A DNA stretch of 64,000 nucleotides from Henriciella sp. GTDB taxonomy: Bacteria > Pseudomonadota > Alphaproteobacteria > Caulobacterales > Hyphomonadaceae. A program made the position numbers and the translations under genes. Shown piece after piece: positions 7,504 through 35,113 of this stretch. The notes beneath the pieces were generated by a model that saw only the letters and a list, made by a program, of their open reading frames with translations, was not told the origin of the DNA and did no database searches. Positions within the stretch are counted from its first letter, which is position 1. Each line of letters begins with the position of its first letter. The DNA lies in contig OZ255705.1 in NCBI GenBank assembly GCA_965277015.1, forward strand, positions 2,902,475-2,966,474. Direction: 5' to 3'.

Positions 7504-7578
7504 GGTCGATTAGCTCAGTGGTAGAGCACTGCATTGACATTGCAGGGGTCACAAGTTCGAACCTTGTATCGACCACCA
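7504..7578 (+). tRNA. tRNA-Val (GAC)
   Basis: Acceptor GGTCGAT/ATCGACC, D arm TAGCTCAGTGGTAGAGC, anticodon arm CTGCA-TTGACAT-TGCAG, GTTCGAAC T loop, encoded CCA. Confidence 0.97.
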
Positions 7579-7584
7579 TTTTCT
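7534..7584 (+). repeat. attL-type copy: tRNA-Val 3' half (51 bp)
   Basis: ttgacattgcaggggtcacaagttcgaaccttgtatcgaccaccattttct is identical to 14986-15036 and matches 35062-35113 with 3 mismatches. Confidence 0.95.
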
Positions 7585-14985: not shown

Positions 14986-15036
14986 TTGACATTGCAGGGG
15001 TCACAAGTTCGAACCTTGTATCGACCACCATTTTCT
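14986..15036 (+). repeat. attR-type copy of the tRNA-Val 3' half
   Basis: 51/51 identical to 7534-7584. Confidence 0.95.
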
Positions 15037-20308: not shown

Positions 20309-21859
20309 ATGCAGACGATAGTAAAGATGAGCCTGTTGGTGATTGGCATTATTGCATCGGCGCACTTTGGCTTAGCACAGGAGGAGGACGTACAGGTTGC
20401 GTCGCCCGCGGAACAACACGCTTCAACGTCTTTTATGGTTTCGGTCGCGAATAAGGCGGATAACGCCTCTCGAACCGCCTCTGGTTTTATTGTCAATTCG
20501 CAGGGCTATGTTCTCACGTCCGCCTCGCTCATCGGTCGAGATGATGACGATACCTGGTTTGTTCAAGTTTCTGGAACCGTTGGCGTCATTCCGGCGACGG
20601 TTATATCGCTCAACGAAGATCTCGGGGTTGCGCTTCTCAAGACCAATGACGTTGAATTGCCGAATGTCGCAACATTCGCCTCTTTCGACCTGGAAAAGGG
20701 CGCGCCCGTCCAATCTTTGTCGATGGATGGCGACGGCACCGTCGCTGTCTCACCGGGTTCAATTGGCGATGCAGCCCTTCCAACCCGGAATAATCCACCG
20801 GTACAATATTTCGTTCATAACGCGCTTGTCACAGCAGAGGGTTATGGCGGAGCACTCTTGAATCGATGCGGCGAAGTCGTCGGGATAAACGTCACAAATC
20901 CGAACCTGTCGCGGAGAAGTGCGCGTCGTTTGCCGGCGCTCGATCAAAGTGTTTATTCACTAACGCTCGATCCGACGGCACAATTTTTGTTTGCGAGCGA
21001 CATCGATCTGAGTGTTGCACCTGGCCGATGCCTGAGTGCTGAAGAGGAAACAATTGAAGCCGTCTCAGTGACCAAGTCGACCGAAGAAGAGCTCGGTGAG
21101 GCGCAGCGCAAGCTCGACGAGCTTGAGGTGGCGCGACAGGAAGCCGAAGCCGAGCGGCAGGAACGACAAGACGAGGCTGACCGTCTTCGTGCAGAAGCCG
21201 ATCGATTGAAACAAGATAATGAAGCGTCCGAGGCGGAAATAGACGACGCAGATGCGGCAGCTGCAGAAGCCGAATCGCTCGCGGAACAAGCGTCCTTGAA
21301 GCTGAGCGACTTGCAGACCGAAATCGACACTCTTGATGGTCGCATAAAGGACCTCGAAAACCGACTCAAGGACGCGCAGCGGCGTCTGTATTATGTCCTG
21401 GCCGGCTCAGCAGCATTGCTAATTCTGCTTGGTCTGGGGCTCAGCATTATCATTCGCAACCGCGGATCAAAACTCGTCAACGTGTCGGCTGATTTGGATG
21501 CCGCGCATGAGAAGCTCGCGGAAACGTTTCCCGACGTTGAGTGCCGGGGCAAAGACGGCCAAAACGCGCCTCACGCTTTCCGGGTTTCTGGCGCTGCCCT
21601 GGTTCGTTCTCCGGAGGGATTGGTCATCGGTCGCCAGCCGGCGAGCGCCGATATCGTTCTAAATCATCCCGAGGTTTCTCGTGACCATGCGCGTGTGCAA
21701 ATCAAGGACGGCGAGCTCACGATCGAAGACCTCGGCTCTACCAATGGTACATTCGTCGATGGTGTGAAGCTCGAAAAGGGCAATCCGAGGCGATTGCAAG
21801 ACGGCAGTGAATTGAAGCTCGGTCAAATCACGCTCACTGCTAAATATATCGGAGCATAA
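20309..21859 (+). CDS. Membrane-anchored trypsin-like pseudoprotease with coiled-coil stalk and cytoplasmic FHA domain
   Basis: GGAGA RBS and ATG 20309; signal peptide; Trypsin_2-like fold with TSASLI / DLGVALLK / EGYGGAL in place of the catalytic motifs; about 100-aa coiled coil; TM; FHA (IGR, SRDH, STNGT). Confidence 0.85.
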   Translation: MQTIVKMSLLVIGIIASAHFGLAQEEDVQVASPAEQHASTSFMVSVANKADNASRTASGFIVNSQGYVLTSASLIGRDDDDTWFVQVSGTVGVIPATVISLNEDLGVALLKTNDVELPNVATFASFDLEKGAPVQSLSMDGDGTVAVSPGSIGDAALPTRNNPPVQYFVHNALVTAEGYGGALLNRCGEVVGINVTNPNLSRRSARRLPALDQSVYSLTLDPTAQFLFASDIDLSVAPGRCLSAEEETIEAVSVTKSTEEELGEAQRKLDELEVARQEAEAERQERQDEADRLRAEADRLKQDNEASEAEIDDADAAAAEAESLAEQASLKLSDLQTEIDTLDGRIKDLENRLKDAQRRLYYVLAGSAALLILLGLGLSIIIRNRGSKLVNVSADLDAAHEKLAETFPDVECRGKDGQNAPHAFRVSGAALVRSPEGLVIGRQPASADIVLNHPEVSRDHARVQIKDGELTIEDLGSTNGTFVDGVKLEKGNPRRLQDGSELKLGQITLTAKYIGA

Positions 21860-21863
21860 TGCG

Positions 21864-23336
21864 ATGTTTAAAAAGATCCTCATCTCAATCGCTATTGTCG
21901 CTCTTGCTGCAGGTCCTACAGCGCACGCTGACGCGGTCTCTTCGATCTCCAGCTGGTTCGGCGGGAGCCCAGAAGATCGGATCCCTCCCGATGACATTGA
22001 AAAATTGTCCAAGAGCGTCGTTAAAATCCTGACTTACACAGAGACGAGGGGCGAACTGAAAGGAGGCGGAACAGGCTCAGGAGTCATTCTGGACGATGAA
22101 GGCCACATCCTCACCAATTGGCACGTGGTCACCACGTCGATCGACCCAGTCGTTTCCGGCGTTGGTATCAAGCTCAACTACGAACTCGGTGAGGAGATCT
22201 GGGTCGCGACAGCAGATTCGTTGTCGCAGGTGCGTGCGGAACTGCTTTGGGTGGACGCTGAATTGGACTTGGCGCTGATCAAAGCCGTGCGGCCAATTGG
22301 TGAACCCGCCACCATTTCGACGCAGATGCCGGTTAGTGAGCGGAAAGTGACAGCGATGGGGTTTCCGGGCGCCGCCGAAGATTACAAAATTCGCCGTCAA
22401 ATTATCGAAGGCGGCCCGGACTCGTATGAGGAGTTGCGCGATGCACGTTTGAGCGAAATTGCTCTGACCCCGACGACTGGGATTTACGGCAATCTCCAAA
22501 ATCGACCATGGAACGAATTGGTCGCTAACAGCAAGCGCGTCAAAATTATTCAACACGACGCCGCTGTCAGTCACGGCAATAGTGGCGGACCATTATTCGA
22601 TGGTTGCGGCCGCGTGATTGGGATCAATACCCAGGTCACAATACGAGATTCGAACATTATTGCTGGTGTTTCCCTTGCATCGAGCATTGTAGAGGCGGTG
22701 CCCTATCTGCGTGATCAAGGGGTCAACTTTAATTTGCTAGACAATGTCTGCGAAACTTGGGTGCCGCCACAAGCCTTGGACACCTGGGATCTAATGTTGA
22801 TTTTGGCGACGCTGAGCTCGCTGGTCCTGGCAGCCGTCGCCCTCTCGCGGCGTCCTGTCAGACAAGCGATTTCAACCGGCGTGTCTCAATTAGTGAGTTC
22901 CGGACCAGCCAACTCTCGCCCATCCGAAACAGGCACCAACCAAAATCGCTATAAGCCTCGTCATAGTTCACCGCCAGGACCGCGGGCCAGCCAAGTCGGT
23001 CAAGTGCGAGTGATTTTGTCGGGAATCGCACAATCAAATGGTCACATTATCCGCATCGAGGTGGAGCCAAACGTGGCAAATAAGAGCGCCGATGGATTTG
23101 TCATCGGGCGGCAGCCGGAGCTTTGTCACCACGCGCTGGCTGACCCGATGGTTTCAAAACGGCAAGCTCGGTTTTTCTGGGACGCCTCGAAACTGATGCT
23201 GGAGGATTTAAACTCCACCAACCCAACCGTTGTGAACGGCGAAGAGTTGAAACCCTTTCAGCCACATTCCATCAAAACCGGGGACCGTGTTTTGATAGGT
23301 GATGTTGAACTTAAAGTGACCATGGCTCGAAACTAA
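21864..23336 (+). CDS. Membrane-anchored trypsin-like serine protease with cytoplasmic FHA domain
   Basis: Signal peptide; GTGSG, TNWHVV, LDLALIK, GNSGGPL intact triad; TM LMLILATLSSLVLAAVAL; FHA (IGR, SKRQ, STNPT). Confidence 0.9.
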   Translation: MFKKILISIAIVALAAGPTAHADAVSSISSWFGGSPEDRIPPDDIEKLSKSVVKILTYTETRGELKGGGTGSGVILDDEGHILTNWHVVTTSIDPVVSGVGIKLNYELGEEIWVATADSLSQVRAELLWVDAELDLALIKAVRPIGEPATISTQMPVSERKVTAMGFPGAAEDYKIRRQIIEGGPDSYEELRDARLSEIALTPTTGIYGNLQNRPWNELVANSKRVKIIQHDAAVSHGNSGGPLFDGCGRVIGINTQVTIRDSNIIAGVSLASSIVEAVPYLRDQGVNFNLLDNVCETWVPPQALDTWDLMLILATLSSLVLAAVALSRRPVRQAISTGVSQLVSSGPANSRPSETGTNQNRYKPRHSSPPGPRASQVGQVRVILSGIAQSNGHIIRIEVEPNVANKSADGFVIGRQPELCHHALADPMVSKRQARFFWDASKLMLEDLNSTNPTVVNGEELKPFQPHSIKTGDRVLIGDVELKVTMARN

Positions 23337-23371: not shown

Positions 23372-23626
23372 ATGAAACTCAAAAGACTCGGTCGCAGCTC
23401 ATTTAATGAGATCTCAGTTCAAGACCCGACGGTTTCTAGACGACACGCGGAAATCGTATTGCTGCCCGATGGCCGATTGTTCGTCACAGATTGTATGAGC
23501 ACGGGAGGCACCTTTGTTGAAATCAACGGCCGGTGGGAGCCGATTCGACAGGATTATGTGAACGCAGGTCAACAACTCAAATTTGGCGGCGTCGTCATGT
23601 CGACCGACCAACTGACACGCCGTTGA
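23372..23626 (+). CDS. Stand-alone FHA domain protein
   Basis: 84 aa; LGRS, VSRRHA, DCMSTGGTFV. Confidence 0.85.
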   Translation: MKLKRLGRSSFNEISVQDPTVSRRHAEIVLLPDGRLFVTDCMSTGGTFVEINGRWEPIRQDYVNAGQQLKFGGVVMSTDQLTRR

Positions 23627-23654
23627 TCAACGAATATTAGGAAAGGATACGAAA

Positions 23655-24341
23655 ATGCCAGTAGAGCATGATAAAGATGGAAACATCATCGAAACACCTG
23701 TCACAGACGTGCAGATCGGTAAAACCCAACGGACCCTTAGCGGGTCGACAGGGGCCGGAGAACCAGCAACCGAGGCCACGGATGTGTTTGGGCAAAAAAC
23801 CCAGGTTGTTGGCGCACCCCCGCTACAATCCTCCGAAAAGACAGCGCACGCTGACGAACCGTCGAAAACCGGAAGACGCGATTCTGCTCAAACCGGCGGA
23901 GCCTCGAAGCAACCAGCAACTGCATCACGCACTTCGCTCGTGGGAGGCCTTCCCGCAGATGAAGACGGCTCTGCTGGGCTGGCACAAAATGATGATCCAG
24001 TTGTTGGCTGGTTGGTCGTTGAGAACGGACCTGGTAGAGGGTCGGCTGTGCAAATCGGGACGGGCATGAACGCTGTCGGGCGCGGCTCGGGCCAACGCAT
24101 CAGTTTGAACTTTGGCGATAATGCCATTTCATCCGAGAAGCATTTTTTCGTGTCATACGACCCACGATCTAGCGAGTTCGCGGTCCACCGAGGTGACGGT
24201 ACGAACCTGACTTATTTGAATCAGCAGCCAATTTATGGGTCTGAGTCCCTTCAAAACATGGCGCAAATCGAGGTTGGCCAAACGACTTTGCGCTTTGTTG
24301 CGCTGTGCGGTGAAGAGTTTAGCTGGGGAGCGCAAGACTAA
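23655..24341 (+). CDS. FHA domain protein with Thr-rich disordered N-terminus
   Basis: C-terminal PVVGWLVV..GPGRG, VGRG, ISSEKH, GTNLTYLN; first about 110 aa low-complexity and Thr-rich. Confidence 0.88.
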   Translation: MPVEHDKDGNIIETPVTDVQIGKTQRTLSGSTGAGEPATEATDVFGQKTQVVGAPPLQSSEKTAHADEPSKTGRRDSAQTGGASKQPATASRTSLVGGLPADEDGSAGLAQNDDPVVGWLVVENGPGRGSAVQIGTGMNAVGRGSGQRISLNFGDNAISSEKHFFVSYDPRSSEFAVHRGDGTNLTYLNQQPIYGSESLQNMAQIEVGQTTLRFVALCGEEFSWGAQD

Positions 24342-24345
24342 GCGT

Positions 24346-25683
24346 ATGAAAGACTCCGAAACACCCCAATTGTTCCTGAAAGACCGCGTCGCCGGCGACC
24401 AGTGGATTGGTCAACGCGAACGCCAGGAAGATAATTTTCTTGTTATCGACCTGCGCGACGATGGTCATAACGAAGACGATGCTGTTCTTTGCATCTTAGC
24501 TGACGGCATGGGCGGTGCAGTAGGGGGATCGATCGCAAGCAAGATTGCGGTCGATACGTTTGCTGATGCTTATTTAAGCGCACCAAAGTCTCAATCGCCA
24601 GGCGAGCGATTGTCTGCTGCCTTAAGTGAGGTTACGTCCGCACTGCAGCAAAGAATCTCCGTCGAGCCCAGCCTGAAAGGCATGGGGTGTACATTGGTTG
24701 CCGCATTGATTGAACAGGATTCAGTGCGCTGGATCAGCGTTGGCGACAGCCCATTTTGGCTCCATCGCAACAATAGTTTGACGCAGCTGAACAAAGATCA
24801 TTCAATGAAACCGGTGCTTGATGCCCTGGTCGAAAAAGGTGAACTGACCAGAGACGAGGCGGATCGGGACGGTCGGAGAAATGCGCTCCGCTCGGCCATT
24901 GATGGAAATGAACCCCAACTGATTGATCTACAAGATAGTGGATATCAGCTGCAGCCGGGCGACGTCTTGATTTTGGCCAGCGATGGCTTGGAGACGCTTA
25001 AGGTCAAGCAGATAGAGAAAATCCTCGATCAACATCGCTATTCCTCTGTGATCGAGCGCGTTGAGAAGCTGCTTTTGGCAACGTCTAAGCAGAACGACCC
25101 GTACCAAGATAACACAACGGTCATTTTGATGGACGCTGTGATGTCTGAAAAAGGTATGAGAGCGATTGCCAATCCGACGCGCCGAGGTGACGGAATTTCC
25201 GTGCCGGCTTCGACTGTTCGATTGAGGGAAGCAACAAAGGCTCCAAGCGAGTCCCGGAAACCAATGCAATCGCCGTCCGGTAAATCGAGTCTGATTGTGT
25301 TCGTGCTTGCGAGTCTTCTATTCATCGCCTTCTTATTGCTGTTATACATAAGGTTTGGCGTCGGGAATGAAACGCAAGATACTTCGCCCGATCCCCAAAT
25401 ACATCCGAATGATACCCAGTCGCCTGAAAGCGACCTTGATAGCTCGAAACTGGGTCGCTCTCCGTTCGTTGAAGAAGAAGCTGGTGATGAAACAAGCGAC
25501 GCGGAAGCCAGAGACGAAAGCTTCGTTGAAGATCCGACTGAACCGCCTGAAAACCCAGATGCACCAGACCCAAATATAGAGGTCATTCCGGACAATGAAA
25601 GCGGCGGTGAAGGGCAAGGCGCCAGGGCCGACGGCATCGAGGAAGGTACAGAGTTAGACTCTGCAAGGGGCACTGATCAATGA
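24346..25683 (+). CDS. PP2C-family Ser/Thr phosphatase with TM segment and acidic periplasmic tail
   Basis: RERQED, ADGMGG, GCT, VGDS, DHS, SDGL, DNTT motifs; TM LIVFVLASLLFIAFLLLLY; ATG 24346 lies 4 nt after the upstream stop. Confidence 0.93.
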   Translation: MKDSETPQLFLKDRVAGDQWIGQRERQEDNFLVIDLRDDGHNEDDAVLCILADGMGGAVGGSIASKIAVDTFADAYLSAPKSQSPGERLSAALSEVTSALQQRISVEPSLKGMGCTLVAALIEQDSVRWISVGDSPFWLHRNNSLTQLNKDHSMKPVLDALVEKGELTRDEADRDGRRNALRSAIDGNEPQLIDLQDSGYQLQPGDVLILASDGLETLKVKQIEKILDQHRYSSVIERVEKLLLATSKQNDPYQDNTTVILMDAVMSEKGMRAIANPTRRGDGISVPASTVRLREATKAPSESRKPMQSPSGKSSLIVFVLASLLFIAFLLLLYIRFGVGNETQDTSPDPQIHPNDTQSPESDLDSSKLGRSPFVEEEAGDETSDAEARDESFVEDPTEPPENPDAPDPNIEVIPDNESGGEGQGARADGIEEGTELDSARGTDQ

Positions 25684-27653
25684 GTTACTCCAACGCTTTA
25701 AACAAAGGACAGGTCCTTTTTGACGACTATGAAATCGTTCGCGTGCTTGGCGAGGGCGGCTTCGGGATTACCTATCTCGCCTATCAAACCAACCTCAAAA
25801 AAGCGGTTGCGATAAAAGAGTACTTTCCTGTTGAATGGGCCGTGCGAACGCAGGATATGCGGGTCGAGTGCATGAGGGAAAATAAACAGGAGCTGTTCCA
25901 GTGGGGCTTGAATAGTTTCCTGCAAGAAGCGCAAACAATTGCCCTGTTTCAACATGCCAATATTGTGCGGCCAATCGATTATAAGAGCGCCAATGGCACG
26001 GCATATCTCATCATGGAATATGTCGAGGGAAAAACGCTCGAGCAAATTATCAAAGAACGCGGAACACTTTCGGCGGAGGAAGTTCGCTTCTTAATGGAGA
26101 AATTGCTCGCGGGCTTGGACCATGCGCACGAATTGAGCGTGCTTCACCGTGATATCAAACCGGCAAATATTGTTATTCGCGCCTCTGACGGTGAACCCGT
26201 ATTGATTGATTTCGGCGCGGCGCGTGAAACGGTCCAGAAGCGGTCGGCGCCAATCACCGCAATCGTCACGGCGCCTTATGCGCCTCATGAACAGTATTCA
26301 ACTCAAATGCAGAAACAGGGGGCGTGGACGGACCTGTATGCTGTATCGACAGTTGGATACGAATGCTTGACCGGTTCGCGTCCGCCCGACGGACCCGGTC
26401 GGGTCGAAGAAGATACGCACAATTATCTTGATGAAAGCAGGCACGACGACGCCGATCTGTGTCGTGCGATCAATCAGGGAATGCACGTACGCACCGTTGA
26501 CCGACCTACTGATGTTGAAACCTGGCTGGCCTATTCCGGAACCAAATTTATTCACCTAAAGCCTGGGATTATCAGCGGCGAAAACGGTAAAAGGGATGAC
26601 TCGAACTCGCCTCAAGATACCAAAAAACGCGGGAAGGATTCTGGCGGGTTTCGGACTGTACCCAGACCGCCAACACCCTTGGGAGGTAACCGCCAAGGGC
26701 AACCCCAGCAGCGACGCAACACGTTGGTGATGATCGGGGGGGGCATCGCGGCGATCGCTTTCGGCGTCTATTATGTTAATACCATTGGCGGCACCGAACT
26801 CGATCCTGATCGAGGCTCCGTCGATCGAAGCGCTGCCAATCAGGCGCCGAGCGGCGTAGATCGATGGCGGGATAGCGTTGACATTGAGGCGCTTGAAAAT
26901 GACATACCGATGCTGGTCCGAATCCCGGCAGGAAGTTTCGAAATTGGATCAACGCCTGATGAACTTGGGCATGACGATGATGAATCGCCCAAGACTCGCA
27001 TCACGATTGATTATGAGTATGCACTCAGCGAAACCGAAATTACGGTCGGACAATGGCAAGCGTGCACTGCAAATGGCTTGTGCGAAAAAATCGGAAACCT
27101 GCGCATCCCTGCCACGAATGAGTTGGTCAATGACCCGTCTAGACCAAGCGATCCAGTACGCGGCATTCGGCCGACTGATATACAAGACTATCTACAATTT
27201 TTAACGGAACGAACCGGGCATACGTATCGTCTGCCAACCGAAGCCGAGTGGACTTTTGCCGCCCAGGCGGGCTCCGACAATGTCTACCCTTGGGGGAACG
27301 ACGCACGCCTCGATTTGGCGAATTGTACGGATTGCATACCCGGGCGTACGCAGGCGTCTTTGATGCGCGTCGGATCATTTCCGGCGAATGCCTATGGCCT
27401 GTATGACATGCAAGGAAATGTCTGGGAGATCACTGCCGATTGCTGGACAAGAAATTTCAGTTCCATTCCGACGACGGGTGAAGCAACAAGAACTGAAGAT
27501 TGTCATACGCATCCAGTGAAAGGAGGGGCATATTCAAGCGGTATCGCTCAATTAAGAGTTGCGGCGAGGCAAAAATTCCAATTCGTCGAGAACGGCGAAG
27601 AAAAAGGCAGTTTCATCATTGGCTTTAGAGTGCTTCGAGAGATCCGCTCATAG
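25680..27653 (+). CDS. Hanks-type Ser/Thr kinase fused via TM to a periplasmic FGE-sulfatase (SUMF1/TagR-like) domain
   Basis: LGEGGFG, VAIKE, HRDIKPAN, DFG, APHE; TM; IPAGSFEIGS, YRLPTEAEW, YPWG, GLYDMQGNVWE, KGGAY, GFRV. Confidence 0.94.
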   Translation: MSYSNALNKGQVLFDDYEIVRVLGEGGFGITYLAYQTNLKKAVAIKEYFPVEWAVRTQDMRVECMRENKQELFQWGLNSFLQEAQTIALFQHANIVRPIDYKSANGTAYLIMEYVEGKTLEQIIKERGTLSAEEVRFLMEKLLAGLDHAHELSVLHRDIKPANIVIRASDGEPVLIDFGAARETVQKRSAPITAIVTAPYAPHEQYSTQMQKQGAWTDLYAVSTVGYECLTGSRPPDGPGRVEEDTHNYLDESRHDDADLCRAINQGMHVRTVDRPTDVETWLAYSGTKFIHLKPGIISGENGKRDDSNSPQDTKKRGKDSGGFRTVPRPPTPLGGNRQGQPQQRRNTLVMIGGGIAAIAFGVYYVNTIGGTELDPDRGSVDRSAANQAPSGVDRWRDSVDIEALENDIPMLVRIPAGSFEIGSTPDELGHDDDESPKTRITIDYEYALSETEITVGQWQACTANGLCEKIGNLRIPATNELVNDPSRPSDPVRGIRPTDIQDYLQFLTERTGHTYRLPTEAEWTFAAQAGSDNVYPWGNDARLDLANCTDCIPGRTQASLMRVGSFPANAYGLYDMQGNVWEITADCWTRNFSSIPTTGEATRTEDCHTHPVKGGAYSSGIAQLRVAARQKFQFVENGEEKGSFIIGFRVLREIRS

Positions 27654-27697: not shown

Positions 27698-28552
27698 ATG
27701 AGAAAAATTATCGCCAGTCTAACACTGGGAGTGTCAGTTTTCGCGACCGGATGCGCAACCACAATGGAGCAGTTGCAAGAATTTGAACTGCCAACGCAAT
27801 TTCCGAGCGTGTTCACTGATTCCTTTAACAAGATGTTCGATCAACAGAATCAAGCTGCCCTGTCGGCGAGAAAACAAGAGCTCGCCAGTTCTGGCATATA
27901 TGCAGATACGACCAAGGTGAAGTTGTCGAATTCGTATGCATCTTCCAGTCAAGCATACACCAAAACCACAGTTCAAGGTGTGGCGTTGGGCGCCGTGATT
28001 GGCGGCGTCGGGTGCAAATACCTGGCATCCACAAATGATACGCAGACCGGACTTTGTGCGGCGGCTGGTGGATTGGCAGGATTGGCGTTTGCCAACCTGG
28101 TGAATTCTGAAGCAAGAGAGCTCACCGACGACCGCGCTAAACTGGAAGCCGAACTTCAGCAAGCTGAGAACAATCGCGCCGCGGCTCAGGTTCTCGTCAA
28201 TGAAACGCAAGACAACATCGTATACTTGGAATCTGTCGTGGCTGGTTACAAGAACGACCTAGCGCAAAACAAGATTTCCCAACAGCAATATGAAGCGAAT
28301 ATCATCGAGGCGCGGCAGATTGCAATTGCGATGACGGCAGACTTAGACAAAGTTAAAAGCGATGTCGAAGCGCAGAAAAAACTATTTGCGACGGTTCAGA
28401 AGAATAGCGCCAAGGGTGAAGAACCCAAGAATCAAGATCTCATTCCGGCTATCGAGAAATCGATCAATGCGGATGACGAGTTCCTAAATACTGAGGTGAA
28501 ACTTGCCACTCAACGCGTTGTCGACTTCGAGAAAGATCTAGGCGCAGCGTAG
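27698..28552 (+). CDS. Lipoprotein with glycine zipper and coiled coil (TagQ-like architecture)
   Basis: Lipobox FATG-C; GVALGAVIGGVG..AAGGLAG glycine zipper; helical C-terminal half. Confidence 0.8.
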   Translation: MRKIIASLTLGVSVFATGCATTMEQLQEFELPTQFPSVFTDSFNKMFDQQNQAALSARKQELASSGIYADTTKVKLSNSYASSSQAYTKTTVQGVALGAVIGGVGCKYLASTNDTQTGLCAAAGGLAGLAFANLVNSEARELTDDRAKLEAELQQAENNRAAAQVLVNETQDNIVYLESVVAGYKNDLAQNKISQQQYEANIIEARQIAIAMTADLDKVKSDVEAQKKLFATVQKNSAKGEEPKNQDLIPAIEKSINADDEFLNTEVKLATQRVVDFEKDLGAA

Positions 28553-28561
28553 GAGCAGATT

Positions 28562-29086
28562 ATGGATCTCAGGAGATTAACAGCTATTTGCGTATCCGGT
28601 CTGGCGGCAACAGCATGTGCAACAACGACAGGCATCACCGACCCGCAAGAGTGTATTCAGAAGTATGGAATCGCAGCCAAGGTTTGTTTGGATGAGGTCG
28701 CGGCTCGGAATAAAGAGATTGAAGGTGAAATTCAGGAAATCGAGGTCGATACTTCTGAGACTCAATCGCAATTGGTGGTGCTGAAAGCTCGCCAGACAGC
28801 GCTTCAGAATGAATATGCGTCTTTGCGGTCGCAGCTTGATACTGAGGCGCAGGATTTGGCGGAAATGCGGTCAACGCTTACAAAGTTGCGGACAAATAGC
28901 CGACTGACCGAAGTGCAGTACCAAACGCTTCTCAACGAGCTGGAGTCGGTGAATTCGCGAATTCTCGTCTTTCAGGCGAAGCCAGTTCCAAACATGCCGA
29001 CTCAAGGCGATGTCAAAGAGATAGATGAATTCCTAGGCACTGAAGTTGCGATGATTAAGACGACGATTTCGAACCTCAGTTTCTAG
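28562..29086 (+). CDS. Coiled-coil lipoprotein
   Basis: Lipobox AATA-C; long heptad-rich helix; 174 aa. Confidence 0.8.
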   Translation: MDLRRLTAICVSGLAATACATTTGITDPQECIQKYGIAAKVCLDEVAARNKEIEGEIQEIEVDTSETQSQLVVLKARQTALQNEYASLRSQLDTEAQDLAEMRSTLTKLRTNSRLTEVQYQTLLNELESVNSRILVFQAKPVPNMPTQGDVKEIDEFLGTEVAMIKTTISNLSF

Positions 29087-29123
29087 CGTGCAACTCAACG
29101 TAATCGGAATTCACACACGATCG

Positions 29124-29158
29124 CAGCGACCGATCTCATAAAAAAAGGTCGGTCGCTG
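29124..29158. terminator. Stem-loop between convergent genes
   Basis: cagcgaccga ... tcggtcgctg 10-bp inverted repeat after the 28562 gene and 5 nt from the stop of the opposing gene. Confidence 0.6.
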
Positions 29159-29163
29159 TTCGT

Positions 29164-29826
29164 TCAAGTCAGAACAATTTCCAAGGTAGATTTTAGTGGG
29201 CCCAGGCTCGTAATCTGAAGCGTGTATGAGGCCACGCCGAAGCTGTTCCAGGTGCATGATTGCTTGAACTGTGGCCGCTCGGAATTACACAGAATTTCAC
29301 CGCGATCGTCGAGCAACGTCATATGATATCGTGCATTCTCATACCGCGACGAAATTACGATACTGAATGTGCCAGCTGATTTCACACTCAGCTTCAACGT
29401 GTCCGTCTGCCCTGAAGGCATCAGTCGGCGGCGAACGGTGCGTGCCCCTTGAACATGCCTGACAACTGTGCCGGCAAGACTGCGGCTGAACGCGCTATAG
29501 TCGAGATCTGGGAGCGTGCGGGAGACTTCCTCGATCATATCGGCAGATGAGACTGGGGCACTAGGTTGTTGGCCTGGGTCAGCAATGGTGCCTCGTCCGG
29601 CCAGGTTGGCGGTCGCCTGGTTCTCAAATTCTTCCTGCAGCTTGATGATGCGGAGGATGGCGTCGAGATCGCTTCGAGCCAGCGCAGTATCAAATTCTGA
29701 TCGATCGATGCCTTGTGCAGAGGCGGGAGTGACAGACCAGACGCCTATGCCAGCCAGTATCAATCCCAAGATAAACATAAAGGGCTTATAGTCGAAGCCA
29801 GTAATATTCCCCATTTGCGTCCCCAT
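29164..29826 (-). CDS. Exported protein with C-terminal PPC-like beta-sandwich
   Basis: Signal ..LAGIGVWSVTPASA-Q; helical N-domain; C-terminal LLDDRGEILC..CTW..YTLQITSLG resembles the PPC-like family with a GDGDTDLDL motif, here diverged. Confidence 0.65.
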   Translation of the reverse strand: MGTQMGNITGFDYKPFMFILGLILAGIGVWSVTPASAQGIDRSEFDTALARSDLDAILRIIKLQEEFENQATANLAGRGTIADPGQQPSAPVSSADMIEEVSRTLPDLDYSAFSRSLAGTVVRHVQGARTVRRRLMPSGQTDTLKLSVKSAGTFSIVISSRYENARYHMTLLDDRGEILCNSERPQFKQSCTWNSFGVASYTLQITSLGPLKSTLEIVLT

Positions 29827-29918
29827 GACACTTGGATCAACAAAGCTGCAGAAACTTGTATCTGCGCCAACGATCGATAAGATAATTTACTGCGTGGTTA
29901 TTATTAGGGATTCTTTGG

Positions 29919-30845
29919 GTGGCAAGTAAAGTCCTTCTCGTCGATGACGAGCCTGATCAGATCGCCCGGCTCGGAGAAGAGATGGCTGCGTTAGGGCTCC
30001 ACGTCGATAGTGCTGGCACCCTCGAGGACGCACGCACTTACCTTGCTTTACATACATACGATCTGATCATTCTGGATCGTGAACTTAAAACCGCATCGGG
30101 CGCCGATGACGGGTTGATATTATGCGCCGAAATCCGAGCGTCCGGTATTTCGGCAAGGATCATTTTCTACACAAATTTGGTTAGTCCGACGGATCACCGG
30201 CTCGGATGGTCGGCAGGGGCAGATGATTATATGGAAAAAGGCTGGCCCCTTGAGGTGACATTAGCGCGTTGTGAAGCACATTTGGCGCGACCAATTTTTC
30301 CTGCACAGGAAAAGCTGTCGGCAAAAGTATACGATCACCCAGGGATTGCCGAAGGACGTCGACTCGTCGTGGATGAGACGTCATTGGTGGTCTCGCGCAG
30401 GGAAGATTTTGAACTGGCCAAACATGGTGGCTTGATCAAACCAAAACTTGATCACGACCGTCGCGAGCATTACAAGAAAGTGAAAATGACAGATCTTGAT
30501 CTGGCGGTTTTCTTTCACTTGTATCGACAATCAGATAGTTGGGTGACGGAGCAAGATTTGTTGCGTGACGTCTGGGGCTATTCCCAAGCGCGCATTGATT
30601 CCATGATGGAAAATCCTGATCTGAACTCCGGTCTGGTGCACACCACGATTTCGCGAATGCGGCGTAAAATCGATACGCGACTGGAGCGCAAGAAGGATCG
30701 AAGTGTTAGCCTTCCGAGTGCGCGACCCTGGGCCTTTATCTCGACGAGCAATGACGAAGGGCAAACCTCGGTCAGTTATAAGTTTAATCGCGCAGATTCC
30801 ATTGTGAGTGCGATCGAGAGTCCAGATTTCCTGGATACGCTATAG
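29919..30845 (+). CDS. OmpR-family response regulator with an enlarged winged-helix domain
   Basis: LLVDDE, IILD, GADDYMEK; C-terminal LLRDVWGY..VHTTISRMRRKI. Confidence 0.88.
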   Translation: MASKVLLVDDEPDQIARLGEEMAALGLHVDSAGTLEDARTYLALHTYDLIILDRELKTASGADDGLILCAEIRASGISARIIFYTNLVSPTDHRLGWSAGADDYMEKGWPLEVTLARCEAHLARPIFPAQEKLSAKVYDHPGIAEGRRLVVDETSLVVSRREDFELAKHGGLIKPKLDHDRREHYKKVKMTDLDLAVFFHLYRQSDSWVTEQDLLRDVWGYSQARIDSMMENPDLNSGLVHTTISRMRRKIDTRLERKKDRSVSLPSARPWAFISTSNDEGQTSVSYKFNRADSIVSAIESPDFLDTL

Positions 30846-32360
30846 ATGCTTGAGCGCTTAAGGCTGGGTATTAGAGGGTGGTCATTTACTTGGCGGCTCA
30901 CCCTGATTTGTGTCATCCCCTTAGCGCTCGTTGCGATTTTGCTCAGCCATTTGGTCAATGGTGAAATTCGAGAACTCTCCCTTGATCTTGAAGCTCAGCT
31001 CTTGGAGCAGGAAGCAATTTGGCTAGGGCAGGAAATTCGAGCCATGGGCGCCATGCGCGATGAAATGCTTGTTTCGGGTCAGGAGTTCCCCTGTCTGGAT
31101 ACGGCGAGCTTATCGACCAGCGAGGAAAGCGCAAATCGAACGGGATTCAGCTTTGAAGAGCCGGTTTGTGCGGGGAACGAGCTAAGTGTGATCCCGATTC
31201 TGAACGAGACCTGTTTCTATTCCGCGTGTGAGGCTCAGATAAACCTGGGTCGGAGAGACACAAAGGTGCTCGCACGGATTTTGCCGATGGGGCAGTCTGG
31301 ATGCGGGGTGGAAGACGCAACAGGGCTTCCCGGTCCGAGTGGCTGCCTGATTGTATGGCGCGCGCTTGACCAGCATGAAGACCGCCTCGCAGGTCCCTTC
31401 TTTTGGCCAATAATTGCCCTGGGAGCGGGCGCGTTTGCAACCGGGTTGATTGTTTTTTTGCTCTCCAGGCGGTTCGGCAATCGCATTCAACGCATCAATT
31501 CGGCATTTGAATCATTTGCTAGCGGGAACCGTGAGGTGCGCGCCCCTACGTTCCCATATGATGAAGATCTGAACTCGCTCGCGGAGTCTACGAACGTGGC
31601 CTTGAGGCAAATTGAGCAAGATATGATCTCAGCGCGAAGAGTCAGCGCGTCCTTGTCTCACCAATTGCTGGCGCCAATAAAGCGGATGCAAACGCGCGTT
31701 TCAGACACGGTCATGGAGATGGATGCCTCCAAAGATCCACAGACGCATTATACGGACGCTCGATTGAAAACCTGGCGAAAGGAGCTGGAAGGTGTCAGCC
31801 GAGATGCAGACGGCGTGTTTAGCATGGGGCAATCCTTGCTCGCCCTCCTAAGTGCTAGTGGCGACACACAAGCGGCAAAGCAAAAAGACATCGTGGATTT
31901 GGACGAAGTCTGCATGTTGTGCGCTGCCCGATTCCGGAAACGAGCCGCTGAGAGTGGCATTGAGATCCGAGTCGACGCGGCGGGTATTGAAGTCGTCTCT
32001 GTGTACCATTCGATTGATCAGATCGTTTCGAATTTGATCGATAATGCCATCAAGTATGGTCCTGCTAATGCCAGAATATCGATTACTTGCGACGAGACCG
32101 AAACCGAAGCTTGGCTCGCTGTGCAGGATGAGGGCAATGGCCCGCCGGAAGATGTCTTGCGAGACGTATTCGACGACCACGTACTGGTGTCAGCAACAAA
32201 TTCCGCACGCGAAGGCCGCGGCGGTCATGGAATCGGATTGCTGACGGTCAGGCAATTGGCAGACAATTCCAATATAAGACTTGAACAGAGGCAGTATCAT
32301 CCTGGTTGGGCTGTTGTGCTTTCTTGGCCGGTCGGGTCAGGCCCCCGCTCCAAACCCTGA
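30846..32360 (+). CDS. HAMP-domain sensor histidine kinase
   Basis: Two TMs around a Cys-rich periplasmic domain; HAMP; H-box SHQLLAP; NLIDNAIKY, VQDEGNG, GHGIGL. Confidence 0.9.
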   Translation: MLERLRLGIRGWSFTWRLTLICVIPLALVAILLSHLVNGEIRELSLDLEAQLLEQEAIWLGQEIRAMGAMRDEMLVSGQEFPCLDTASLSTSEESANRTGFSFEEPVCAGNELSVIPILNETCFYSACEAQINLGRRDTKVLARILPMGQSGCGVEDATGLPGPSGCLIVWRALDQHEDRLAGPFFWPIIALGAGAFATGLIVFLLSRRFGNRIQRINSAFESFASGNREVRAPTFPYDEDLNSLAESTNVALRQIEQDMISARRVSASLSHQLLAPIKRMQTRVSDTVMEMDASKDPQTHYTDARLKTWRKELEGVSRDADGVFSMGQSLLALLSASGDTQAAKQKDIVDLDEVCMLCAARFRKRAAESGIEIRVDAAGIEVVSVYHSIDQIVSNLIDNAIKYGPANARISITCDETETEAWLAVQDEGNGPPEDVLRDVFDDHVLVSATNSAREGRGGHGIGLLTVRQLADNSNIRLEQRQYHPGWAVVLSWPVGSGPRSKP

Positions 32361-32480: not shown

Positions 32481-33065
32481 ATGTTTAGGATTGCTCTTCT
32501 TTTCGTTGCGGCGCTTGTACTCACAGCCACTGCCAGCGCGCAGTCAAAAAATAGCCTTTGTAATAACACTGCTTACAAAATGAATTTTGTGTTCAACGTT
32601 CTGAGCAACCAACGGCTTACAACATATGGGTGGTACAATGTGGACCCGGGGGATTGCCAAGACTGGAGCGTTGGCGTCGGTGAAAAAGCCTGGGTGACAG
32701 CATCTATTTATGGGCGACGCGATCTGTACTGGGACAATGGTGCGGACATTAAGCTGTGTGTTGGAAACACCAGTGATGCGTTTGAGGTCGATTATCCCGC
32801 CAATGGGTCTTATTGCCCGAGCAAAACGACGGTACGACCAGCATATCTCTTGAAAGGCGGATCCCGAGGCTTCACCTGGAGCGGTGGCTTGCCAGCGCGA
32901 CCGAGCTCAAAAGACGACGACGCTGCGTTGGGGGCTGCCCTATTGTTAGGTGGGATTGCGTTATGGGCATGGGGCGCTGATGCCGCCGATAAAGCCGATC
33001 AAGAAGCCTGCATGAGACGTTGTACAAAATCACGAGCGCGATGCGTGCGGCTTTGTACGCAGTAA
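32481..33065 (+). CDS. Exported DUF1036-like protein with hydrophobic segment and Cys-rich tail
   Basis: Signal peptide; LCNNT..GWYNVDPGDC matches the DUF1036 pattern; tail C-x3-C-x6-C-x3-C. Confidence 0.7.
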   Translation: MFRIALLFVAALVLTATASAQSKNSLCNNTAYKMNFVFNVLSNQRLTTYGWYNVDPGDCQDWSVGVGEKAWVTASIYGRRDLYWDNGADIKLCVGNTSDAFEVDYPANGSYCPSKTTVRPAYLLKGGSRGFTWSGGLPARPSSKDDDAALGAALLLGGIALWAWGADAADKADQEACMRRCTKSRARCVRLCTQ

Positions 33066-33228: not shown

Positions 33229-34554
33229 ATGAGGTTGATACATCAGGATAGGGAAGAATATGAGCGATCGGTCAACCTTGCCGCTTTAACTTTCATTCGA
33301 GCGCTGCACAGCTTAGAAAGTGAAGCGCCTTTATCGAGCGAGCGCTACTGGCTCGCCGCGAAGGCATTGGTCAAACTGGATGATAATCTTGAAGTAGCAA
33401 ACGTTCAAAAGAAGTTTCTACAGGCTTTTGGCCAACAGATTGAGAGTGACGAGCGTGATCGAAGTGTTCATGAACTTGGGCGTCCAAACGCATCAAAGTT
33501 GTTGGCGAAGCGAGTTTGTGACGATTTGCATTACCTGTTCGTCGATAGCTTTGTGGGCGAAAATGTTCATGAGGCATTCGCCAATCAGCTTATTAAGGAC
33601 GATCGACTATACCAAGCGGTAATCAACGCGATTTCGGCTAATACGATTGCTGATCTTGAATCCAAACTGAATCCGGGCGGTGCTCTTTTGGATAAGTATG
33701 CGGTTACGGGGTCTCGAATTTTTGGTGCTACAGGTGCGGTTGTAACCGGTCATACATTTGCGACACGTTTACCCGTTGCGATCAAATGTGTTTGGAAGAT
33801 TCCAAAATCATATTCCAGCGCTCAAGACGGACAAGATTGGACCTATGGCCGTGTTGAGGTGGCAGGGCGCACGGTCGCTTCCTCCGGGTTTTCGAATATT
33901 TTAGACGTTTCGGCCCTAACGCCGGAAAACCTTTGCATGAATGAGGTTCGCTGTCTTTTAGCTCTGCCATCTGGACCTTGGCCGCGATGCTTGGACGTCG
34001 CCTTCCACAATGGCGTGGGATTTCTAGTGATGGACAAGCTGGAAGGCACGTCGCTCGATAAGGTGATACGCGACCGGGGGGCAATGGGCAGAAAACAAGC
34101 GATTTGGTTGATGGTGCAGATACTAGAAGCGCTCGAAATTGTGCACGAACACGGCTGGCTGCATGGAGACGTGAAGCCGTCCAACATCATTCTTGAGAGT
34201 GATTATCTCAAACTCATAGATTTCGGGGCGGCTGTTGAGTTGAAAGACGACAATGAGCATTTTAGATTCGGAACCCCGGACTATTGCGCGCCAGAAGCCC
34301 TGGACAAAATGTATCTACCTTATCGGCCTTCTGCAGATGTGTTCGGCGCGTTCTCCGTCGGGCTTGAGTGCCTGTTGGGTGTGCAGAACTTCCGAAAGAC
34401 GCGCGACATGTTGGACGTCGACAAAAATTCGCTGATTCAAGAACTGGGCGGTCGAGACTTGCTAGACGTGTTTCGAATTGGATTGTCTGAAAATCCAGAC
34501 CGGCGTTTTCAAACAGCTAAAGCCGCAAGCATTGAATTGTTGCGTCTAAATTGA
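33229..34554 (+). CDS. Cytoplasmic Ser/Thr kinase with unknown N-terminal helical domain
   Basis: VAIK, LVMDKLEG, HGDVKPSN, DFG, GTPDYCAPE, ADVFG; no TM segment. Confidence 0.9.
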   Translation: MRLIHQDREEYERSVNLAALTFIRALHSLESEAPLSSERYWLAAKALVKLDDNLEVANVQKKFLQAFGQQIESDERDRSVHELGRPNASKLLAKRVCDDLHYLFVDSFVGENVHEAFANQLIKDDRLYQAVINAISANTIADLESKLNPGGALLDKYAVTGSRIFGATGAVVTGHTFATRLPVAIKCVWKIPKSYSSAQDGQDWTYGRVEVAGRTVASSGFSNILDVSALTPENLCMNEVRCLLALPSGPWPRCLDVAFHNGVGFLVMDKLEGTSLDKVIRDRGAMGRKQAIWLMVQILEALEIVHEHGWLHGDVKPSNIILESDYLKLIDFGAAVELKDDNEHFRFGTPDYCAPEALDKMYLPYRPSADVFGAFSVGLECLLGVQNFRKTRDMLDVDKNSLIQELGGRDLLDVFRIGLSENPDRRFQTAKAASIELLRLN

Positions 34555-35061: not shown

Positions 35062-35113
35062 TTGACATTACAGGGGTCTCAAGTTCGAACCTTGTATCGG
35101 CCACCATTTTCTC
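35062..35113 (+). repeat. Degenerate attR-type copy of the tRNA-Val 3' half
   Basis: 49/52 identical to 7534-7585. Confidence 0.9.

Follow-up and report, generated by a model that had tools for sequence, protein, structure and literature searches.

A conserved trypsin-like pseudoprotease encoded beside a live paralogue in a mobile phosphothreonine-signalling cassette of Henriciella sp.

Two adjacent genes of the alphaproteobacterium Henriciella sp. encode trypsin-like paralogues of matching layout, only one of which has a recognisable active site, and this raises the question of what a dead protease contributes beside a live one. Both genes lie in a stretch of 64,000 nucleotides (assembly GCA_965277015.1, contig OZ255705.1, positions 2,902,475 to 2,966,474), referred to here as the window; the dead paralogue is called gene A and the live one gene B. 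A sequence-only reading had proposed that the two proteins form a heteromeric receptor-protease in which the dead subunit senses or gates. The analysis leaves little doubt that A is a conserved, non-catalytic pseudoprotease, and inclines, with modest confidence, to the view that it serves B as a non-catalytic partner or sensor subunit. The two genes and their parts are as follows.

20309–21859, plus strand: gene A, a bitopic pseudoprotease of 516 residues (open reading frame, Pfam, AlphaFold2 model with a predicted local distance difference test score (pLDDT) of 92.1, Foldseek, ratio of nonsynonymous to synonymous substitution rates (dN/dS) 0.088)
20432–21037, plus strand: periplasmic chymotrypsin-fold domain of A, without a catalytic triad (HMMER alignment, column counts in 162 homologues, dN/dS 0.083)
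21038–21397, plus strand: charged alpha-helical region of A, absent from B (AlphaFold2 secondary structure, spacing from cysteine to transmembrane helix, dN/dS 0.061)
21398–21466, plus strand: transmembrane helix of A, hydrophobic stretch LAGSAALLILLGLGLSIII (within helix 310–405 of the AlphaFold2 model)
21533–21850, plus strand: cytoplasmic FHA domain of A, with intact GR, SxxH and NG phosphothreonine-binding motifs (Pfam FHA, E-value 3.7e-22; sequence read directly)
21864–23336, plus strand: gene B, a bitopic live protease of 490 residues (Pfam, AlphaFold2, Foldseek, triad in 45 homologues, dN/dS 0.082)
22017–22751, plus strand: periplasmic protease domain of B (alignment of 45 homologues, AlphaFold2 model)

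The longest open reading frame of A begins at TTG 20303. ATG 20309 was taken as the true start because a GGAG sequence lies 8–11 nt upstream of it and because the 95%-identical orthologue at a related locus, L024, begins MQTIVK; all residue numbers of A are counted from this codon. The protein runs from a signal peptide through a dead DegS-like head and a helical stalk or hairpin to a transmembrane helix and the cytoplasmic FHA domain; A and B are both type-I membrane proteins. Pfam matches were found to Trypsin_2 (1.1e-13) and to FHA, the latter with a score of 79 bits (above the Pfam cut-off) and with the motifs GR, SRDH and NG, from which phosphothreonine binding is predicted. Further matches comprised Yop-YscD_cpl, alongside FHA, and two coiled-coil families, both weak and below cut-off; TauE was not found among the Pfam matches of A. 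Pfam found no PDZ domain in either A or B, and in both proteins a transmembrane helix and then FHA take its place. Signal-peptide cleavage was judged by eye, without a predictor, as GLA/Q in A and AHA/D in B.

The AlphaFold2 model of A, built from a 74-sequence family alignment, consists of an N-terminal hydrophobic helix, a beta-barrel domain, the transmembrane helix and a C-terminal FHA sandwich. Foldseek searches matched A to DegS (E-value 3.7e-13, TM-score 0.74), MamO (0.77) and HTRA1 (0.80), with MarP (3k6y, 3lt3) also among the top structural matches; all TM-scores are target-normalised, and those of the A and B ectodomains together span 0.74–0.81. By sequence, the best protease match of A in the PDB was MamO (5hm9, E-value 5e-7), which was also its best match in NCBIfam.

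Alignment of the A ectodomain with HMMER to the solved structure of MucD (8k2y), and also to MamO (5hm9), placed Ser73, Gly106 and Tyr179 on the positions of the catalytic histidine, aspartate and serine, respectively. The segment 'gyvltSasli' of A stands opposite 'gyvltnnHvi' of MucD, 'edlGvallk' opposite 'rtDvavlk', and 'egYggall' opposite 'gnSggplf'; the codons concerned are TCG at 20525–20527, GGG at 20624–20626 and TAT at 20843–20845. In addition, Glu177 occupies the site of the oxyanion-hole glycine (chymotrypsin position 193). Retained instead are three invariant residues that mark the family, His170, Cys187 and Cys241. The sequence-only reading had arrived at the same three substitutions, His to Ser, Asp to Gly and Ser to Tyr, by manual comparison; all six motifs it quoted (TNWH, LDLAL and GNSGG in B; TSAS, LGVAL and EGYGG in A) are present. 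Its statement that paired cysteines are kept holds across the family (Cys187/Cys241 in A, Cys248/Cys296 in B), and the common topology it described, with signal peptide, transmembrane helix and FHA domain in both proteins, was borne out by the AlphaFold2 models and Pfam, with the cleavage sites judged as above.

In B, the order of parts is signal peptide, DegS-like head, transmembrane helix (residues 307–328), disordered linker (336–374) and FHA domain (381–489), and only about 10 residues separate the protease domain from the transmembrane helix. The triad consists of His87, Asp135 and Ser240 (codons 22122–22124, 22266–22268 and 22581–22583), the serine within the loop GNSGGPL, and does not vary among 45 B-type homologues aligned separately. 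B shares the family signature as His231 and Cys248/Cys296. Pfam E-values were 1.6e-21 for Trypsin_2 and 8e-16 for FHA; the AlphaFold2 model (pLDDT 77.7, 45-sequence alignment) has the same order of parts as that of A, Foldseek matched it to DegS, HTRA1 and DegP and, as with A, to MarP and MamO, and Deg5, Deg1 and Deg8 were among its top PDB matches by sequence. The FHA domain of B scored 58.7 bits, above the Pfam cut-off, and its motifs (GR, SKRQ with glutamine in place of histidine, N-P) are only partly canonical. SKRQ, at residues 431–434 (23154–23165), stands against a family consensus of SRRH; the glutamine recurs at the related locus L006, and L010 has histidine. B also carries two insertions that are absent from canonical HtrAs, a low-confidence loop at residues 94–106 (22143–22181) and a helical insertion of about 28 residues at 169–196 (22368–22451). 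At the second site L006 has an insertion of its own, and the more distant B-types at L008 and L011 have neither insertion.

The age of the loss was addressed by searching the A ectodomain with phmmer against 1.84 billion cluster representatives. The search returned 442 proteins at E≤1e-3 and 40 at E≤1e-10, and the A family is therefore small. From these matches, 162 representatives of clusters at 50% identity were aligned; because these homologues were selected for their similarity to A and B, the counts that follow apply to those neighbourhoods and not to sequence space as a whole. A signature absent from ordinary HtrAs, the cysteine pair together with a histidine nine residues before the nucleophile position, where it replaces the threonine of the HtrA 'TDA' motif, was carried by 117 of the 162. 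The nucleophile serine is missing from 106 of these 117 clusters, here called A-types (Tyr or Phe in 84, Ala in 12, another residue in 10), and the 11 that keep it are B-types. Among the 84 A-types with Tyr or Phe, 23 retain both the histidine and the aspartate and 43 have neither; since the 23 keep both, the nucleophile was probably lost first and the remainder eroded later in some lineages, including that of gene A. The glycine equivalent to oxyanion-hole Gly193 is present in 7/106 A-types versus 11/11 B-types. An FHA domain was detectable in 90 of the 117 signature proteins and a transmembrane helix between protease domain and FHA in 89, compared with essentially none of the 45 HtrAs without the signature. 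The most conserved positions of A cluster at residues 170–198, the former L1/L2 active-site region.

In a FastTree phylogeny covering 199 ectodomains (105 A, 52 B and 42 other HtrAs), every A-type fell to the same side of one branch (support 82), so that one change accounts for them; none of 500 label shuffles gave a count as low. The tree is a quick one, some of its branches are long, and it supports a single origin of the A clade without proving it. Gene A and its L024 orthologue are 95% identical at the amino acid level, with a synonymous divergence (dS) of about 0.26 and a dN/dS of 0.088 over the whole gene. The corresponding values are 0.083 for the dead domain, 0.061 for the helical region and 0.082 for B, with other genes of the surrounding cassette at 0.08–0.18, and the reading frame is intact in gene A and in the aligned orthologues. 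A thus keeps the fold and has lost the catalytic residues, and the loss is conserved under purifying selection: the gene persists although its product cannot act as a serine protease. The best explanation is that a live B-type gene was duplicated once, long ago, and that strong selection has maintained A ever since.

The two genes also travel together. Four nucleotides separate the stop codon of A from the start of B in the window, with a GGAG sequence for B just upstream of the A stop codon, and the genes overlap by 8–11 nt in L006, L010 and L024; from this spacing A and B are predicted to be translationally coupled. Both co-occur in 7 of the 8 A-bearing loci where this could be judged: A adjoins B in the window, L006, L010, L024, L008 and L022, and at L011 both lie within the cassette, with four cassette genes between B and A. 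L022 (10001–15929) has one A-type followed by three tandem live B-type paralogues.

What sets A apart from B besides the active site is the region between its last cysteine and the transmembrane helix. In the AlphaFold2 model, two helices, each about 57 residues long, make up this region, and five residues (DNEAS) form a break between them. Across 86 A-types the median distance from cysteine to transmembrane helix is 118 residues (mostly 105–140), compared with 11–30 in most B-types. From the model, the region would be either a hairpin folded back in the periplasm, which would place the A head by the membrane and beside the B head, or an extended stalk of about 17 nm, which would place it near the wall or the outer membrane. 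The choice between these forms matters for the idea of a heteromer.

A and B head a cassette of signalling genes, the remainder of which, beyond the receptor kinase, spans 27698–32360. The other genes and the island that carries them are listed below.

23372–24341, plus strand: two soluble FHA proteins of 84 and 228 residues (Pfam; conserved in L006, L010 and L024)
24343–25683, plus strand: PP2C phosphatase with a C-terminal transmembrane helix (Pfam PP2C_2; NCBIfam Stp1-like match of 5.4e-41, below cut-off)
25680–27653, plus strand: receptor Ser/Thr kinase with a cytoplasmic Hanks kinase domain, a transmembrane helix and a periplasmic FGE-sulfatase-fold domain (Pfam Pkinase 1.9e-37, FGE-sulfatase 1.2e-42)
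27698–28552 and 28562–29086: two coiled-coil lipoproteins (Pfam; same gene order in L006, L010 and L024)
29164–29826, minus strand: divergent gene of 220 residues (blastp between loci; order shared with L006, L010 and L024)
29919–30845: response regulator (Pfam; order shared with L006, L010 and L024)
30846–32360: histidine kinase (Pfam; order shared with L006, L010 and L024)
14986–35112: island of 20 kb with the cassette inside it, flanked by 51-nt direct repeats that copy the 3' half of a tRNA-Val gene

The likely start of the phosphatase is ATG 24343 (MKDSETPQ...) rather than 24235, because a start at 24235 would overlap the preceding gene by about 100 nt. The tRNA-Val gene itself lies at 7504–7578, and copies of the repeat were found at 7534–7584 (the tRNA copy), 14986–15036 and 35062–35112, with identities of 100%, 100% and 94%. 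The three repeats bound tandem islands, of which the third, 20-kb unit contains the cassette. Pfam scans run on the 20-kb unit identified no integrase. The G+C content at 8–36 kb is below that of the rest of the window. Neither an orthologue of A nor the cassette was found in 200 genomes of the same order, and 400 genomes of the phylum yielded at most one other A orthologue. The cassette is rare and was acquired by horizontal transfer.

Within the complete 3.40-Mb genome, FHA domains were detected only in A, B and the 84-residue protein, all of them in the cassette; that of the 228-residue protein is too weak for the genome-wide FHA scan. Only two kinases exceed the Pfam cut-off genome-wide, and both lie inside the island. 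The phosphothreonine circuit appears to be self-contained and to have been imported as a unit. Three ordinary DegP-like genes lie elsewhere in the genome, and neither VipB/TssC nor Hcp of type VI secretion was found in it. The second island kinase (33229–34554, 441 residues) matches only positions 64–204 of the Pkinase profile and has no Pfam match over its first 250 residues or so; it is preceded by a DUF1036 protein (32481–33065). Promoter and terminator scans gave results at chance level. PADLOC returned no system-level match, only generic kinase matches (PD-T4-6, MAD6), trypsin-domain matches (RT-Protease, LmuA) and coiled-coil noise, and the cassette is for this reason not called a known defence system.

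The gene order of the window recurs at L006/L007 (A 43% identical), L010 (35%) and L024 (95%), with unrelated flanks. A related-locus search with the A protein alone gave only FHA-level matches in unrelated phyla. More distant A-types (L008, L009, L011 and L022) sit in a second type of cassette that encodes MotA_ExbB, FHA proteins, PP2C and a kinase, together with a protein of 270–320 residues whose N-terminal transmembrane helix reads SALDLFASALGAF and includes an aspartate. These proteins are related to each other across the four loci by blastp. One or two are present per MotA_ExbB-type cassette (L008 13045–13995, L011 11401–12363, L022 15986–17770 and L009 12888–13697), with a highly conserved SALDLFASALGAF motif and a weak vWA match. 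They fit the TolR-like trans-pore-helix (TPH) vWA partners that PMC12204202 proposes. Neither a MotA_ExbB gene nor a TPH-like partner gene of 270–320 residues is present in the window cassette. Two kinases at L022 carry PG_binding_1 and beta-helix sensor domains in place of the FGE-sulfatase domain, so the sensor module can be swapped while the protease pair is kept. The flanks of L008, L009, L011 and the B-only locus L025 carry toxin-antitoxin pairs, AbiEi/AbiEii, Schlafen-AlbA_2/HATPase_c_4 and AAA_15/AAA_21 genes, which looks like a defence-island or variable-region context.

How these parts might work together can be proposed in outline. Phosphothreonine marks are most likely written by the receptor kinase of the cassette and erased by its PP2C phosphatase, because the only Hanks kinases, the cassette PP2C and all the detected FHA domains lie in the same island. 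An envelope signal would activate the receptor kinase through its periplasmic FGE-sulfatase-fold sensor, and the FHA domains of A and B would bring the two proteins to, or cluster them at, the resulting phosphothreonine sites, candidates for which are the juxtamembrane region of the kinase, the Thr-rich tail of the 228-residue FHA protein and the disordered linker of B. On the periplasmic side, the catalytically dead head of A would then serve B as a non-catalytic partner, much as the dead MamO promotes proteolysis by MamE; its former cleft, with Tyr or Phe for Ser and the best-conserved part of the protein, could bind a ligand or substrate or act allosterically. The helical region of about 118 residues might provide reach or a docking surface, possibly for the two coiled-coil lipoproteins, and the output would probably pass through the adjacent two-component pair. 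A bolder version would make the island an 'inside-out' switch, in which the phosphothreonine state of the cytoplasm assembles the FHA-anchored live and dead subunits into a hetero-oligomer whose dead cleft and helical arm choose or present the periplasmic target. We consider this version tentative and on the whole unlikely. If true, phosphorylation would gate proteolysis across the membrane, for which no characterised bacterial example was found in the literature.

Four explanations of A were weighed. That it is a duplicate which lost its activity recently, has no function in its own right and is on the way to becoming a pseudogene would agree with the disappearance of all three catalytic residues, but is scarcely credible: dN/dS is as low in the dead domain and in A overall as it is in B, the frame is intact, and the nucleophile is lost throughout 106 clusters of one clade with Tyr or Phe conserved in its place. 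The sequence-only reading had accepted that orthologues mostly keeping the triad would tell against it, and the nucleophile serine is absent from every one of the 106 A-type representatives. The low dN/dS and the phylogeny were the grounds for rejecting recent decay. A second explanation, rather less probable than partnership with B, is that A is an independent periplasmic binding or sensing head on a stalk, with B as a separate output or housekeeping arm; the dead cleft would bind a peptide, a lipoprotein or a cell-wall ligand near the peptidoglycan or outer membrane and relay its state to the hub of FHA, kinase and phosphatase. The conservation of a stalk of about 118 residues in 86 A-types and its absence from B speak for such a sensor, as do the concentration of conserved positions in the former active-site region, the A-type of L009 that sits with a protease-less stalk-FHA protein, the B-types of L025, L026 and L027 that occur without A, and the general knowledge that DegS itself is a peptide-activated sensor. 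It is harder to reconcile with the adjacency and predicted translational coupling of A and B in most A-bearing loci, with the family-specific signature of histidine and cysteine pair common to both, which suggests a shared ligand or interface, and with the 5-residue break and high model confidence, which favour a hairpin that would set the A head beside the B head. A third, distinctly improbable, makes A a decoy or negative regulator that binds the substrate or activating peptide of B without cutting it, or poisons B oligomers, until phosphorylation changes the arrangement of A and B. The cleft signature shared by the two proteins (His170/His231 and the cysteine pair) and the bulky Tyr or Phe at the nucleophile position in 84/106 A-types would suit such a role, and inactive paralogues have been discussed as decoys in conflict systems (PMC7159879). 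Against it, the nearest precedent, MamO, promotes rather than inhibits the proteolysis of its live partner, the L009 A-type has no B to inhibit, and the sequence does not distinguish inhibition from activation.

Several observations also weigh against the preferred reading, that A is a partner or sensor subunit of B. At L009 an A-type stands beside a protease-less protein with stalk, transmembrane helix and FHA domain, with no live paralogue within 10 kb, so the role of A cannot be only the regulation of B. Conversely, B-types without any A occur in kinase/PP2C/FHA cassettes at L025 (Thiorhodovibrio frisius CP121471), L026 and L027. These B-only cassettes make the live Trypsin-TM-FHA protein the more widespread of the two, with A added in only some cassettes, and a dead partner is not a general requirement of the live protease. 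The FHA domain of B may bind phosphothreonine atypically because SKRQ lacks the histidine of SxxH. If the helical region of A is extended to about 17 nm, the A head would sit far from the membrane-proximal B head. Physical contact between A and B in a heteromer is plausible, and we infer which protein phosphorylates which from gene content only; the substrate and the output are likewise proposals. Of the heteromeric receptor-protease in the sequence-only reading, the conserved dead paralogue and its usual pairing with a live one have stood, while the occurrence of B without A and the A-type of L009 without B count against an obligate pair. That A senses or gates is a reasonable hypothesis.

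The cassette brings its own kinase, phosphatase and all the detected FHA domains, and would thereby offer a compact, transplantable system for coupling cytoplasmic Ser/Thr phosphorylation to the periplasm in Gram-negative bacteria. It could also reveal what the FGE-sulfatase-fold sensors of such kinases detect, and the live/dead pair links the motor-less cassette of the window to the wider, unstudied cassettes with MotA and TPH-vWA proteins.

Among known systems, the closest concern dead enzymes themselves. Eukaryotes offer well-known examples of pseudoenzymes in control of live paralogues; in bacteria, the pair that has been studied is MamO with MamE. Proteolysis by MamE is promoted by MamO, an HtrA-like protein that is itself dead and lacks Gly193 (PMC4794232). 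As in the present locus, the genes for the dead protein and for a live HtrA protease belong to one cluster, and in both MamO and A the oxyanion-hole glycine is replaced by glutamate (Glu177 in A). MamO, however, retains histidine and aspartate and has threonine for serine, whereas A has lost all three residues and has tyrosine for serine; MamO also has a TauE transporter domain, a di-histidine metal site and a role in the magnetosome, whereas A has a helical stalk, one transmembrane helix, a cytoplasmic FHA domain and a kinase/phosphatase cassette around it. A was itself considered as a MamO or magnetosome protein and rejected (NF040961, 45.9 bits against a cut-off of 800; no TauE). A-types would instead define a second bacterial lineage of dead HtrA-like proteins, apparently of single origin and comprising 106 clusters at 50% identity, whose traits are the typical replacement of the nucleophile by Tyr or Phe, the invariant histidine and cysteine pair, a stalk of conserved length and a cytoplasmic domain predicted to read phosphothreonine.

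With DegS and the other HtrA proteases (S1C), A and B share the chymotrypsin fold, at the structural similarity given above, but only B has a complete triad. DegS, a peptide-activated sensor, is likewise a signalling protease anchored in the inner membrane. HtrA proteases work as trimers, and Deg5 and Deg8 form hetero-oligomers. The present proteins differ from HtrAs in lacking PDZ domains, in their anchor, which comes after the protease domain in the chain and precedes a cytoplasmic FHA domain, and in the signature histidine that replaces the threonine of 'TDA', plus the conserved cysteine pair. Scores against NCBIfam degP_htrA_DO were 27.7 bits for A and 65 bits for B, against a cut-off of 416. 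A and B are not strict HtrA members, because PDZ is absent, these scores are far below cut-off and A has no triad. MarP of Mycobacterium tuberculosis (Rv3671c) resembles them as a membrane-anchored, PDZ-less, periplasmic protease of chymotrypsin fold, and has a functionally relevant disulfide; it differs in its N-terminal transmembrane anchors and in having no FHA domain and no known dead paralogue.

The signalling genes recall the threonine-phosphorylation pathway of the type VI secretion system in Pseudomonas, TagQ/TagR-PpkA-PppA-Fha1, in which TagR carries an FGE-sulfatase region (PMC13713981). Both comprise a membrane Hanks kinase, a PP2C phosphatase, FHA readers, a periplasmic element of FGE-sulfatase fold and lipoproteins. 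In the cassette, by contrast, the FGE-fold domain is fused to the kinase, and two of the FHA readers are membrane proteins whose ectodomains have a protease fold, a kind of reader that the type VI pathway does not possess; because the genome, without TssC and Hcp, has no type VI apparatus to be regulated, the cassette is not the type VI pathway. The TolQ-like plus TPH-vWA motor core was proposed in PMC12204202 with no mention of FHA, kinases or trypsin-like partners. The homologues of A and B at L008, L009, L011 and L022 sit with MotA_ExbB and the aspartate-bearing protein of 270–320 residues in a manner that resembles such clusters, but the window cassette has the two lipoproteins and the two-component pair and neither a MotA_ExbB nor a TPH-like gene. 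No paper describing an FHA-anchored live/dead trypsin-like pair was found among those searched, and PMC7159879 and PMC12204202 do not contain one either. Set beside these systems, the pair is of a known kind, pseudoprotease with protease; its architecture and its signalling context are new.

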